DNA of 64,000 bases from Octopus vulgaris. Lineage: Eukaryota. The position numbers and the translations under genes are program-made. Below the pieces are notes generated by a model. It saw only the letters and a list, made by a program, of their open reading frames with translations, was not told where the DNA came from and ran no database searches. The stretch is from contig OX597816.1 in assembly GCA_951406725.2 (NCBI GenBank), positions 75,702,001-75,766,000 of the forward strand, written 5' to 3'. This document shows positions 2,108-9,556 of the stretch, in pieces; position 1 is the stretch's first letter; every line of letters begins with the position of its first letter.

Positions 2108-4027
2108 ACACATCTAACGCATCACATGTGTTTGACTTAACCATATACTTTCCTCAACAGCCGTTTTTTGAGGTGAGCTTCATTTTGTATGGTGTCAATT
2201 TTGCAATTGAAATTGGATAAACGACAGCTTAGCAATTCACTTAGTTTATTGCTCAAATATAGACTGAATAATTGACTATTGTTTCGTTAGGTAGTAGGTA
2301 TGATACGAACTTCTCTGATGGAGGGAAAATCTGTCAATTGAGAGAAATATCATTGTACTTATAGTCGTAATGAAAATACTTTTTGAGTTCCGATTTCAAT
2401 ATATAAAATTCCCCTCTATTTTGTAATAAACCTATACGAAATGTTTTTTTTCTCACGTTTCAACGCAATAGTATTGAATTTCTAAATCATCATGATTTTA
2501 AAGATATTTTCAAATGGTATGTGTTTAAAATCGTTCTCCAAATGCAAAGGTTTGGCACACTTGCGTCTTATCGTTTAGATTCGGTTTCACCTACGCATTT
2601 TGAGAGAAATTTGGCAACTGTAGAATGTGTGTGTGAACCTGTTAGAGGAAATGTTCCTGCTTTGGGTGGACGCCTTAATCTGTCGCCTTGTTGGACACTA
2701 CCAGACTCCTCGGTACTTTTTCGCAGTGTATACTCAGTTGCAAACTTCTAGGCCTCTTCCCTTCTTCATACAGCTCTCAAAGTTCTTAAGATGAGTCATG
2801 GAGACTGTAGTGTCTTCTCTCAGTCATTAAAATATTTGGCGCATTTACATGTAAAAGTGTTTTGAAAATATCAAGCCGTATTCTTGCAGCAATAAATGAC
2901 AACATGCGCCCCGTTCTTTCCAACACGGTTGGGGATAAATTAGGGGAAGATGTTTTGTTGCTATTTCGAGCCAGTCAGGTGACTATGTAGGCATTTTGTC
3001 CGAGGGTCTAACGATTCTTCGAATCCATTGCAGTCAATTCCATATGAACTATTACTTCAAAGTTAGTTGAGCAGAGCCTCAGATCTGAAAGTTTGCTTTA
3101 TAGAATCTTCTACGTCTAGTTCTGATCCAGAGAAACTCATTTGTCAGTGACCATTTCTACACCAACGTTCGAACTTGCGGGTATTTCTATAGAACCTTAC
3201 ATTTCGTGGTGGTTAATTTCATAGACACTAGTATCTTCTGGTCTATCATGCAGAAATTTATACGTCATATTAGAGGTAACGAGCATCGCTATAATAACTT
3301 AGAATCAAGATCAGCGCATTAGCTCATCCGCAGATGTGAGTGACACCGGCAATAATAACACCACCACCACTACCACCAACAAGAACAAGAACAAGAACAA
3401 CAACAAGAACAAGAACAAGAACAACAACAACAACAAAAACAACAACAACACTACTAATGGTGAAATTTATACCAATCAACTAATGTAGTCTTTAGTAACT
3501 CATTATTTCGCGCCTGGATATGTTACTGTGTATTTATTTACACATTATTGATTGATTGTCATAAGAATATTTCTTGTTCAGATCTTATCATACTGATGTA
3601 CTGATGTATGACTGATGTATAACTATTTACACTTAACTTTACACGCTATTTAGACGCGTGATACACTGTTATATCAAGCAACACTGACATATGTACACAG
3701 ACACACTTTCACAAATATACAGAATGCTTCCCATAAGTAAAGTAGCATATTTCCGTGTACGCGCGCGCGCACACACACATTCCCAAAGAGGTAACATGCA
3801 CTCTGTTGAGGTCATGTGTGTCTTATTACTATACATGCATAAATGCGCACATACATACATTCATATATATATACGTGTGTGTGTGTTTGTGAGTGTGTGT
3901 GTGTGTGTGTATGTGCGCGTGCGTGTGCGTGCGTGTGTCTATATATGTATATATATATATAAATTTTTTTTCCGTAATGAGATAAAATACCAAGGCTGTG
4001 TAGATTTTAGAACATTTATAGATAGAA

Positions 4028-4077
4028 AGTCTTACAGCTGTTTCCAGGATATTTATCATATCCCTTCATCGGCGACG
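4028..4077 (-). ncRNA. Type I hammerhead ribozyme motif (U4C variant) in a (TA)n-flanked PLE-like remnant (about 3965-4260)
   Basis: Minus strand reads gtcg-CCGATGA-ag-ggatat-gataa-atatcc-tg-GAA-ACAGCTGT-A-agac: stem II ggatat/atatcc, palindromic stem III, GUA cleavage triplet, imperfect stem I. Confidence 0.7.
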
Positions 4078-4290
4078 GTGTGAGAGGATGGTTAAGAAAT
4101 AGTTGATTTGGATAAGATACAAAATAGAGAGTGAGGTGGAGGAAATAAAAGAAAATAGATGTGAGATATGTAGGGCTATTGTATCTGTAGATCCATTTTT
4201 TAAATGCAGAATGGCATACATATAAGATTCCAATACCTTATGAGTAAAATCCAATAGTATTTGATTATATATATATAATCAAATCACTAC

Positions 4291-4418
4291 ACACATACAC
4301 ACACACATACACACACACACACACACACACACACACACACACACACACACACACACACACACACACACACACACACACACACACACACACACACACACAC
4401 ACACACATATATATATAT
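4291..4418. repeat. (CA)n/(TA)n microsatellite
   Basis: Read directly. Confidence 0.95.
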
Positions 4419-5031
4419 TAATAAATCTTAGGGTAGCAAAAAAATTTAGAAAAATTCTTTGCTACCCGTGGTCTAGCGAGAAGAGAAAATTAGTCAATAG
4501 ACTATATATTATTCATATAAAAACACAGTGTACATTTAAACACATAAGAGATGGCCATAACAGGCCATCTGACTCACTAGAAGGAGTAGTTAAACTACAA
4601 ACCACTAATAGACCACTGGTAGCAAAGAATTTTTCTAAATTTTTTTTGCTACCCTAATATTTATTAATTAATGATAAAAGGTTTTTTTTGGCTAATTTTG
4701 AAAGAAACTCGGCACTTGTATTTACTGCCGAAAAAGTTTTTTGAAAAGTTATATCATGAAAAGTTATATCATGAACACGAGGCATGTTCTTTATCGCCTC
4801 GTATTTATATGTTAGCCTTGGCTTCCTGCTGAAGAGAGCATCGCCAACTGTAAATGATTTTATTTACAAAAGATTGCTTGAAACTATGCGTAGTCCAGGA
4901 AAAATAGGATAAATGTTTTTATTTTTCATTCCCTTTCAGAATTACAACTATTAGTGGTTTGTAGTTTAACTACTCCTTCTAGCGAGTCAGATGGCTTGTT
5001 ATGGTCATCCTTTATGTATTTAAATGTACAC
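4418..5031. mobile_element. Fold-back, hammerhead-containing non-coding element between microsatellites (PLE pLTR-derived or retrozyme-like)
   Basis: Two inverted-repeat pairs (4418-4475 vs 4609-4668, and 4527-4610 vs 4949-5031), a hammerhead at 4823-4901, and (TA)n on both sides. Confidence 0.75.
4823..4901 (+). ncRNA. Canonical type I hammerhead ribozyme
   Basis: ttcctg-CTGAAGA-gagca...tgctt-GAA-ACTA-tgcg-TAGT-C-caggaa: 6-bp stem I, extended stem II (gagca/tgctt, tgtaaat/atttaca), 4-bp stem III, GUC triplet at 4893-4895. Confidence 0.85.
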
Positions 5032-7037: not shown

Positions 7038-7279
7038 GTATATATATATATATATATATATATATATATATATATATATATATATATATATATATATATA
7101 TATGTATATATATATCTCATCTAATGAAAATGAATTATACATGAGGTACTTTAAGTTTCATGCTTTGATAGTGCAGTAATCGCATAGGCTTGTATAGTGT
7201 ACCGTATGCATCCAGAAATGGCTTAGGCTCAAACGACAGGTTGTTCCGCGAGGAAATGCGAGAAAAAGTGAGGAAATAT

Positions 7280-8035
7280 TACGAGAAGAAATGGGAAGAA
7301 AACGCATTCCCTACTATAATAGTATCCTGGCCTCCAGTGGTTTTAAAGAAACGATAATATACATTCCAACCAAGACAAGAACCAAGCCTAAAAATTGGAA
7401 AGTTATGTGGTATGCGTCTACATTTCCTTGAGTGTTAGTACTAAAGTAGGTCAACAAAAAATCCTAGTTTTGAGAGATAATAAAATTTTCCTTAACATTC
7501 GCAAATATAAGAATATCTTCAATAATCTGTCCCTGAAAGTTTCCTACAGCCGCGGTCCTAATATGAAAACCTCTGTTTACTTAAGCCAATCAAGATTCCC
7601 ATTCCTGACTGCAACTGCAGGTACGAATACTTCTTCACTAGAAGGTATGCGTTAGCTCAGTCGTATGCGAATATGATGTCACCTCTGTGCCGCCAAACAA
7701 AGGCACTATAAGATAAAAATATATTGGAATCTGGGAAGCGATTTAAAAAAGAGTACGTTAATTACTAGTCTTCTTTGAAGCACATAGACAAAAGAAAAGC
7801 ACAAAGCTAGCAAGCCTTATCTAGGAAATAAAGAACAGCATTAAGCTAGACACCACCAAGTAGAGCATAGTAGAGCACCACCAAGTAGAGCATACAATAA
7901 TAGTTTAAAACATTCAGGCTCTGTATAACTAACTGAAAAACATGTCCTTTTTGATTGAAGAACTATGCCGACATTTTAAACTCGAGTTAAAGAGCTTTCA
8001 CGAGATGTATGCATCGCGATAAGTTTCTGATATTG
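7280..8035 (+). pseudogene. Penelope-like element C-terminal region with GIY-YIG endonuclease, decayed
   Basis: Broken frames give VSTKVG...IFNNLSLKVSYSRGPNMK, CNCR...LEG, KYIGI, KSTKLA, LC..EK and the terminal RCMHRDKFL, in the order expected for a PLE C-terminus. Confidence 0.7.
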
Positions 8036-8940
8036 AACTGGAATCCCTAGCACCAGATTAGATACACAGGTTCATGTATTTTAGCATTTCCATCTTTCAA
8101 CTATCCTCCTTAACGATATTTTTTTCTTTTAGATGTAAACACCCAGCGTTAAGACTAGTCTTCATTTAACGGGTTACAGGGTCATAAACATTATTTCCCT
8201 TTCCCTTAAGGATTTCTTGTAATTTATTCTCGTTTTTATTTTTTGCATTTCCTTGTGGAGTGGCCATGTCATCTGGACCTAAGCAATTGCCGAATTGTGC
8301 TAGGTATGCTATATAATCCCGTTCGACTATTACACTATCCGTATTGTAGCTGACGTATAACTCCCGTGTTCATTAAATAACACTCATCTCTCATTGAATT
8401 GAGAGCCTTTCTGCTGATCTGCCAACAGGCTAACGCTATATATAATCACACACACTCACACACATATATACATACATATTCATGTACATGCGTATATACA
8501 TATGTAAACACATACGGTTACACACATATATCCGCCTAAAAGCATAGTGTACGCACACTCATAAATATAGGCGCGTACGATTGACGTAAACGTGATAATA
8601 TTTACGAACACACATGGATGTCACAGGACAACGATACACACTAACTAGGCTACCGATTATGCATTTCACCATGCACATACTCTCATGGAAATAATGTAAT
8701 GCACAGTTACACAAGTATACATAGAATATCACTATTCAAGGAAACACGGGATCATTTTTCTTCAAAGATACGCCACATATAGGTACGTACAGTCATTACA
8801 TACAGTCATCACACACATACATACATACATAGATATATACATACATACATACATACATACATACATACATACAAAAATACATGCATACATACATACCTAC
8901 ATACACACACACATAAATACATACACATACACACACACAC

Positions 8941-9556
8941 ATAATTGTTAAAGAAGACAACAAACAGTAAGGCAAGGCAAACATCTCAAGTCGTATACAA
9001 TATTATTATTAGAAAAAAATTTCAAAGTCTTAAAGATGTTTCTAGGATATCCCCCAGTATGGGATATTCCGTCTTCAGAGACTAATAAGAAAAAATAGGG
9101 AAAATGAGAATGGTATATGTTGATGAGATGACGGCATAGAGGAAGGGTGTAAAAGAATAAGGAGATGGAGAGAAATAATATGTTCGCGTCTTTTTTTCTC
9201 TGGATGTTTACTATATCAGGATTTTAACCCACATGGATCTACGCAGGATTTCACCTAAGTATTTATGCTCTTGTTTCTACATCGGAAAGTTGAACTATGA
9301 ACTTTTATGCTTCTTTTTTTCTTCTCTCTCTCCATCTCCGTATTCCTTTACTCCCTTCCTCTATGTTGTCATCTCATTAATATATAGCATTCTCATTTTC
9401 CCTATTTTTCCTTATTTGTCTCTGATGACGGAATGTCCCATACTCTGGGATATCCCAGAAACATCTGTAACACTGAATTTTTTTCCAATAATAATATTGT
9501 ATATGGCTTGAGATGTTTGTCTTGCCTTAATGTTTGTTGTTCTCTTTAACAATTAT
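8941..9556. mobile_element. Fold-back element: inverted arms of about 230 bp (8941-9173 and 9326-9556), each with a hammerhead motif
   Basis: Arms align as reverse complements along their length. Flanked by (CA)/(TACA)n on the left and TA repeats on the right. Confidence 0.8.
9418..9474 (+). ncRNA. Type I hammerhead motif; mirror copy at 9026-9083 on minus
   Basis: gtct-CTGATGA-cgga-atgtccca-tactc-tgggatat-ccca-GAA-AC-atct-GT-A-acac. The minus copy has a perfect agtct/agact stem I and CTGAAGA, but its cleavage triplet is TTA. Confidence 0.75.

Follow-up and report, generated by a model that had tools for sequence, protein, structure and literature searches.

We analyzed a 64,000-nucleotide stretch of the Octopus vulgaris genome (assembly GCA_951406725.2, contig OX597816.1, positions 75,702,001 to 75,766,000 of the forward strand; hereafter the window), in which four short pieces with type I hammerhead ribozyme motifs, E1 to E4, stand close to decayed protein remnants of Penelope-like elements (PLEs). 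The initial annotation, made from the letters alone, had described the four as several distinct non-autonomous families mobilized by a PLE. Our analysis points to a repeated, probably gene-less hammerhead family at one of the pieces, E2, next to what are probably ordinary PLE ends.

Hammerhead motifs and TA targets

We scanned the window with a relaxed type I hammerhead descriptor and, separately, with a stricter one. The core tested was C3-U4-G5-A6-N7-G8-A9, G12-A13-A14, A15.1-U16.1 and H17, together with stems I-III, and 40 block-wise dinucleotide shuffles of the window served as control. The relaxed descriptor gave seven motifs per 64 kb, six of them inside 3965-9556, compared with a shuffle mean of 0.8 motifs per window (maximum 5) and 0.075 per region (maximum 1). 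All six have the type I core and stems, with U4C and single broken pairs as exceptions, and the stricter scan retained four. The six hammerheads of the initial annotation are thus borne out far above shuffles. It had also proposed a search by Rfam or by a descriptor allowing U4C, for which we covered the window only: the descriptor found the six motifs, and Rfam returned no hammerhead family, neither in the 35 rows for 3960-5330 nor among the 150 best of 238 rows. The seventh descriptor match (43676-43751) has poor stems, lies within chance expectation and was rejected.

The E1 hammerhead (4033..4072, minus strand) has the core CCGATGA, a U4C variant, with a palindromic stem III and a broken first pair in stem I. 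E3 has two hammerheads with the U4C core CCGACGA, one in its inverted arm (5161..5132, minus strand) and one in its main arm (5192-5221, plus strand). Both E4 hammerheads have a single broken pair, in stem III in the inverted arm (9078..9031, minus strand) and in stem I in the main arm (9422-9469, plus strand). The E2 hammerhead (4829..4895, plus strand; core CTGAAGA) is predicted to cut after GTC, that is, after 4895. It has a 6-bp stem I, a 44-nt stem II region and a 5-bp stem III, and is the only one to fold near-optimally as a monomer (constrained fold -13.9 kcal/mol, minimum free energy -14.5 kcal/mol). U4C is a natural hammerhead variant with much lower activity in vitro (PMC3088659). 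Minimal PLE hammerheads are reported to cleave poorly and as dimers only, and eight of nine predicted Xenopus retrozymes to fail to cleave.

Other hammerhead-like traces were seen in the window. A possible decayed 5' half of a Hydra-style hammerhead (8412-8432, plus strand) lies directly before a TA run, about 370 nt past the end of an endonuclease remnant. The half-cores CTGAAGA...GAAAC at 15669-15700 (plus strand) lack stems and are a degenerate hammerhead or chance. Two direct repeats of 180 nt (43061-43240 and 43653-43831; 83% alike, 590 nt apart) each hold two hammerhead half-core sets and no proper stem I, and are perhaps terminal repeats of another PLE.

Microsatellites are dense in this AT-rich window, and 35 of its 59 inter-array segments are no longer than 700 nt, so a position between microsatellites carries little information here. 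Arm homology fixes five of the element ends: four are no more than 1 nt away from a (TA)3+ run, and the remaining one (8944) adjoins CATA/(CA)n; in the background, 1.7% of non-run positions fall within 3 nt of such a run. This agrees with the insertion into TA arrays that had been proposed from the letters. In tests chosen after the cluster had been seen, seven of eight PLE pieces fell within 10 kb (P ~0.0005 if uniform), and the clustering of the four hammerhead elements had a P of 0.008 even when drawing from long TA arrays. Insertion of the Hydra type probably has a hot spot here.

The E2 locus and its family

E2 (4417-5032) is built of two inverted pairs, 4527-4611/4948-5032 (79/85 identical) and 4417-4475/4609-4668 (57/60 identical). 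Its main copy (4609..5032, plus strand) consists of region A (4609-4668, a hairpin), a middle (4669-4828), the hammerhead and region B (4948-5032), and ends on (TA)31 (5033..5094), an array common to the 3' ends of E2 and E3. The inverted copy (4417..4611, minus strand) reads, in its own sense, B (4611-4527), a 51-nt spacer (4526-4476) and A (4475-4417), and its 3' end adjoins (TA)5. The order B-spacer-A is that of a head-to-tail junction. Combined with A-middle-hammerhead-B in the main copy, it suggests a template B-spacer-A-middle-hammerhead-B, which is longer than one period of 475 nt; the locus itself holds about 1.3 units.

E2 has a GC content of 31%, and the longest ATG-initiated open reading frame (ORF) of the unit, at 53 codons, was matched by 109 of 500 shuffles and is at chance level. 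Frameshift-aware and profile comparisons found no PLE coding trace in it. A candidate coding remnant in the middle (score 47, with 4 of 100 shuffles as high) was rejected at 2.8 bits against a profile of 12 PLE relatives, a score below those of at least 15 other window pieces. Modelled as a circle, the unit folds better than shuffles (z -4.6, 60 shuffles).

To follow E2 beyond this locus, contigs of four public sequencing runs were placed on 4412-5030 at 80% likeness. All four were positive, with 2870, 3012, 2550 and 226 E2-like contigs. Across the three large runs the summed depth was 2,400-8,200 in the hammerhead bins and mostly 50,000-500,000 in the part behind the hammerhead, and single listed records had depths of 26-63. 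Summed depth, which is not a copy number, suggests about a hundred copies of E2's own subfamily and thousands of the 3' module. A metagenome scan with a 23-nt E2 motif gave one locus (L001), alike over the motif only, which was rejected as chance.

In its majority letters the family resembles most Hydra hammerheads, with a U behind A9 and with G10.1, and the majority letter G4890A (92-98% of depth) turns the E2 stem III into a perfect palindrome. Other subfamilies enter the same 3' part via GAAAC-CATG-GTC, GAAAC-CAAG-GTA or GAAAC-CGTG-GTC, so that the stem III palindromes vary in paired fashion between subfamilies. Core hammerhead positions were absent among the best 40 of 129 variants.

Among the best 27 of 103 joints there were at least 12 different antisense-to-sense junctions, each at a depth of 29-68. 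These fold-back junctions are unique to their loci and at single-copy depth; hence the fold-back arises anew with each insertion and is not a property of the element. The initial annotation had called three of the four elements fold-backs, and the inverted pairs of E2, E3 and E4 do exist (E1 has none), but its treatment of the fold-back as an element feature does not hold for the E2 family. A fold-back of A only, similar to a hairpin at 28941-29058, is also among the joints listed.

The same observations bear on the view that the fold-backs are DNA elements resembling miniature inverted-repeat transposable elements (MITEs), or palindromes made by replication at TA arrays, with the hammerheads as passengers or chance matches. 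Hairpins free of hammerheads do adjoin TA arrays in the window: the one at 28941-29058 (118 nt, next to (TA)n) is weakly like E2 region A (score 29, shuffle maximum 27), and the right arm of a 61-nt inverted pair at 23912-24184, in which no hammerhead was seen, adjoins a long TA run. Six motifs where 0.075 are expected, paired stem III changes across subfamilies and junctions that differ per locus, unlike fixed terminal repeats, already largely refute this view, which we regard as very improbable.

The joints of the proposed E2 unit recur elsewhere. B-spacer-A is contiguous at other loci (records 2 and 18), and other loci also bridge A to the middle (record 12, with 13 mismatches), the middle to the hammerhead (records 13 and 22) and the hammerhead to B (records 8, 14, 16 and 23). 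A jump from 4707 to 4897/4902 that brings in another hammerhead half, seen in three runs, implies a second unit of about 310 nt.

We weighed these data against the proposal that each of the four pieces, E2 too, is an ordinary truncated end from an autonomous PLE and that the 475-nt unit is an accident of this locus and a few others. E2 would then be a composite of an inverted copy, a short 3'-end piece (a partial tandem) and a second truncated copy that begins near 4775. The standard PLE layout has inverted 5'-truncated copies, partial tandems and tails (PMC8557442), and opposite-strand dual hammerheads 100-700 bp apart have been ascribed to truncated PLEs (PMC4209133). The proposal also accommodates a gap in E2 depth at 4727-4768, the several E2-family joints that fall at 4771-4776, and long unlike extensions upstream of 4807. 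It fits less well with the depth of 15,000-19,000 at 4675, which exceeds that of the hammerhead bins and indicates that A commonly continues into the middle, and with the diverged records 12, 13 and 22, which bridge the middle. Nor does it predict the second closed unit of about 310 nt, or the roughly 250-290 nt that follow the E2 hammerhead, compared with about 35-110 nt in six new Hydra consensus sequences (by eye). We consider this proposal unlikely, though by some way the most serious of the alternatives.

Several observations weigh against a head-to-tail E2 family. E2 has a single hammerhead, and the share of paired bases in the unit is the same as in shuffles (0.59 and 0.60). Depth at 4727-4768 is only 0-216, with thousands on either side, so most related contigs fail to align through the middle; only about two further records in each run extend across it, with ~82% identity. 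None of the listed contigs spans the unit, and the contigs are too short to reveal dimers. The pieces that bridge the joints may belong to different subfamilies. Upstream of 4807, records 8, 15 and 23 run on for 174-205 unlike letters; these may represent flank or else a longer coding element. In several joints a side is shorter than 30 nt. The tables for the runs hold the best entries only, for example 27 of 103 joints and 40 of 129 variants, and summed depth over bins does not equal copy number.

Two further observations were not used as evidence. Many joints begin just behind the predicted cut site, where depth rises about tenfold, and divergence between hammerhead subfamilies explains this rise equally well. 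Run X9, an RNA run by guess only, tracks the DNA profile with little cover over the middle and the hammerhead, and was not used for expression.

Penelope-like remnants and the pieces E1, E3 and E4

The window contains four decayed PLE protein remnants, all on the plus strand. The first (7273..8038) comprises the reverse transcriptase (RT) thumb, a CxC linker and a GIY-YIG endonuclease, and stops at the ORF C-terminus (frameshift-aware scores 84-101 for ~7270-8038, shuffle maxima 39-42). A second endonuclease C-terminal remnant (10390..10630; scores 59-84, shuffle maxima 41-48) was absent from the initial annotation. A decayed RT (13440..14682) is split by a SINE-like (short interspersed nuclear element) dimer into two parts, 13440-14046 and 14458-14682, which an RT profile built from 12 relatives and run on the window recovered with independent E values (i-E) down to 3e-24; the best value in the reversed-window control was 0.13. 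The fourth (44370..44509) is an ORF N-terminus (YS.KNI...LRWRAF) with scores of 70-76 and shuffle maxima of 33-44. The three remnants originally recognized (GIY-YIG, RT and N-terminus) are thereby all confirmed, and the GLYRDDG-type PLE named with them corresponds to the Hydra clade.

A HMMER library search with a stop-free 66-residue piece of the RT gave 139 relatives, of which the only named one is from the octopod Argonauta hians; a word-index protein search with the same piece gave no match among five candidates. The 13 longest relatives have R[WM]K/R, DKT (as ADKT or SDKT) and LYRDDG; those that are complete also have CxCx5C ahead of the C-terminal GIY-YIG. The window remnants preserve LRWRAF, GLY*DDGL and CNC; DKT itself is not kept. 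RWK, DKT, LYRDD, a CxCx5C linker and GIY-YIG at the C-terminus are marks of the Hydra clade (PMC8557442), and from motifs and profile matches we assign the neighbouring remnants to it. Naiad elements, which have TA targets and are present in Octopus, were rejected as the source: they are described as having no canonical hammerheads and an N-terminal endonuclease. Pfam gave a single match on six remnant pieces, judged to be chance.

E3 consists of an inverted arm (5095..5176, minus strand), which holds a hammerhead and no tail, and a main arm (5177..5329, plus strand), in which the hammerhead precedes a one-sided tail of 67 nt; the tail bears a Hydra-like hairpin motif, and the arm ends on (TA)37. 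The arms are identical at 83/87 positions (95%), the two hammerheads lie 31 nt apart and the truncation point is 15 nt upstream of the hammerhead. By eye, the stretch CGTGAAACTCCGAGTAACAG of the E3 hammerhead is identical to Hydra-2_Ajap at 20/20 positions, and the tail has the motif RCTC-hairpin-GAGY-ACT downstream of the hammerhead, as in Hydra-2_Ajap and Hydra-2_Amil. The sequence of E3 is best read as a head-to-head pair of very short Hydra-element 3' ends. Since it resembles autonomous Hydra 3' ends by eye and has the standard inverted copy and one-sided tail, it is most simply ordinary debris.

E1 (3962..4266, minus strand) is an ORF-less piece without a fold-back, made of a 194-nt pyrimidine-rich leader, the hammerhead and a 71-nt 3' end on (TA)n; at its 5' end lies a small palindrome with (TA)6 in the centre (4260-4285). 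E4 has an inverted arm (8944..9173, minus strand) and a main arm (9174..9555, plus strand) with a 248-nt ORF-less leader, the hammerhead and an 86-nt 3' end on (TA)4; the arms agree at 208/238 columns (87%). The pyrimidine-rich leaders and hammerheads of E1 and E4 are weakly alike (~60% identity; score 52, maximum of 200 shuffles 50). When runs were searched with E4, some words occurred in 20 of 24 rows and half or more in one, with no RNA run among the rows listed; the small shares were not used. E1 and E4 look like similar debris and are likely ordinary 5'-truncated ends. Their leaders show no coding trace in a frameshift-aware comparison with shuffles and exceed in length the 3' untranslated regions (UTRs) of five Hydra elements from the literature (52-177 nt, by eye), so the two pieces could be non-autonomous. 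An alignment test did not bear out the C-terminal codons that had been read by eye in E2 and E4.

These leaders are one argument for assigning each of the four pieces to a non-autonomous hammerhead family of its own, within a retrozyme-like system whose intermediates are circular RNA. Another is that no element has a coding trace, the best scores being reached by 33, 4, 67, 92 and 60 of 100 shuffles; any short 5'-truncated copy is, however, expected to lack an ORF. Head-to-tail units were not found in E1, E3 or E4, which at these loci are inverted copies or a single copy; E3 is cut off close to its hammerhead and resembles autonomous ends; and both E4 hammerheads are damaged, in arms that diverge by ~12%. 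We regard a system of four families as quite improbable. The original claim of several non-autonomous families finds support only at E2.

Two points weaken the connection of the pieces to the Hydra clade itself. The hammerheads of E1 and E4 fit Hydra but are not diagnostic. Moreover, 35 comparisons of E1-E4 with the DNA around the local ORF remnants gave no clear match (two exceeded the shuffle maximum by one or two points), so the link rests on hammerhead style, target and co-location.

The window holds other mobile elements. The SINE-like dimer in the RT remnant (14045-14462) has an 18-nt target duplication with one mismatch, and its repeat family occurs more than ten times in the window; the abundant SINE-like repeats look like those of octopus. 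Perfect 31-nt inverted repeats about 430 nt apart (19928-20360), around CCCTAA-like repeats, are probably a MITE. Judged by eye from translations, 29135-32335 (minus strand) and 36518-37403 hold endonuclease and RT frames of LINE type (long interspersed nuclear element), with an 80% inverted partial copy; more LINE pieces lie near 17400-18400, 27300-27800 and 50355-51450, and a mariner-like piece at 61236-61550.

Relation to known elements and a possible mechanism

The published Hydra clade has (TA)n targeting in almost all families, a table of hammerheads and an Octopus bimaculoides family, Hydra-1_Obim (Craig et al. 2021, PMC8557442). An inverted 5'-truncated copy with a one-sided tail is described there as standard PLE structure, and dispersed single hammerhead motifs have been ascribed to truncated PLEs (Cervera and de la Pena 2014, PMC4209133). 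The general picture at this locus is hence already known. The pieces share with the clade the (TA)n targets, a type I hammerhead near the 3' end, protein motifs in the local remnants or their relatives and the inverted 5'-truncated copy, noted for Penelope-13_HM (PMC8557442); the E3 hammerhead is nearly identical to that of Hydra-2_Ajap. The 3' ends differ from Hydra-1_Obim, with no match for E1-E4 by eye, and six short words from E1-E4 had no relevant match in the PMC8557442 supplement. The U4C core of E1 and E3 is absent from the hammerhead table as available in that paper, and the available sections describe no non-autonomous Hydra family. With the minimal PLE hammerheads of PMC4209133 there are in common a short stem I, an extra base after A9, a palindromic stem III, and single dispersed motifs or opposite-strand pairs from truncated PLEs. 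E2 differs from them in its 6-bp stem I, 5-bp stem III and long branched stem II, and the E3 pair is only 31 nt apart, closer than the 100-700 bp reported.

Retrozymes were taken to be elements without coding capacity in tandem 150-450-nt units, two or more, each with a type I hammerhead. Like animal non-LTR (long terminal repeat) retrozymes (Cervera and de la Pena 2020, PMC7229834; Li, Clavereau and Pollet 2026, preprint 10.64898/2026.07.22.740005), E2 is non-coding and low in GC, with one type I hammerhead per unit of 310-475 nt, a head-to-tail junction and co-occurring PLEs. The contigs show no tandem of two or more E2 hammerhead units, and the E2 hammerhead is PLE-style, where retrozymes have the canonical form. 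Its dispersal in TA arrays with PLE-type inverted copies is not reported for retrozymes in the available parts of these two sources. Chlamys non-autonomous PLEs such as MRC1 (PMC8557442) are likewise ORF-less, with head-to-tail insertions that use PLE machinery. They are, however, green-algal, belong to a clade mostly without hammerheads and resemble the 3' end of their autonomous partner, whereas a partner for E2 was not found. In the literature on cephalopod or octopus hammerheads and retrozymes, a search that did not cover most subscription papers, PMC8557442 was the sole relevant paper and no cephalopod retrozyme appeared. The available text of an O. vulgaris repeat study (PMC13282606) does not mention ribozymes; the E2 family may already be listed in its supplement or repeat library, classed as Penelope-like or unknown, and the supplements of preprint 10.64898/2026.07.22.740005 could list related families.

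Taken together, we favour, with moderate confidence, decayed (TA)n-targeting Hydra-type PLE insertions in which E1, E3 and E4 are ordinary 5'-truncated ends and E2 belongs to a repeated, gene-less hammerhead family with head-to-tail units of about 475 nt. More tentatively, E2 may represent an undescribed, very abundant octopod family of ORF-less hammerhead units (several subfamilies of about 310-475 nt, in which different hammerheads join a common 3' module) that travel in tandem or circular RNA form and that Hydra-clade PLE protein inserts into TA microsatellites.

A mechanism can be proposed on these grounds. It would start from the arrangement seen at the pieces, a hammerhead motif near the 3' end and 3' ends that adjoin TA. 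In the one PLE studied in vitro, the RT-endonuclease nicks AT-rich DNA on both strands, and reverse transcription begins at two sites inside the RNA, downstream of the hammerhead (PMC11167929); such internal priming behind the hammerhead would explain the tail. If both nicked strands prime and each copy stops early, two 5'-truncated copies would result, head to head and with a one-sided tail, and a fold-back junction formed in this way would vary from locus to locus, as it does in the E2 family. The E2 template, of at least 560 nt at a 475-nt period, might be an ORF-less tandem transcript or a circle copied in trans. The palindromic stem III of E2 suggests cutting as a dimer, and the predicted hammerhead would in this form cut tandem transcripts to monomers able to circularize. 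As a point against such a role, insertion in the only in vitro PLE system did not need hammerhead cleavage (PMC11167929).

Overall, the locus is probably mostly ordinary Hydra-type PLE debris plus one non-autonomous, retrozyme-like family, E2. E1, E3, E4 and the ORF remnants simply add further families to a known clade. PLEs have been named a strong candidate for the enzyme that moves animal retrozymes (PMC7229834), and a recent preprint reports co-occurrence and sequence kinship of the two, with the mechanism still to be worked out (10.64898/2026.07.22.740005). Insertion scars of the PLE type on an ORF-less hammerhead family would link retrozymes to PLEs; such a family would also provide the in vitro PLE assay of PMC11167929 with a short natural template, and would be a sizeable group of unannotated repeats in a cephalopod genome. 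If the more tentative reading is true, E2 copies with the PLE signature (a microsatellite target, a one-off inverted copy and internal priming) would be direct genomic evidence of a PLE engine for animal retrozyme-like elements and would define an RNA module recognized by the PLE protein.

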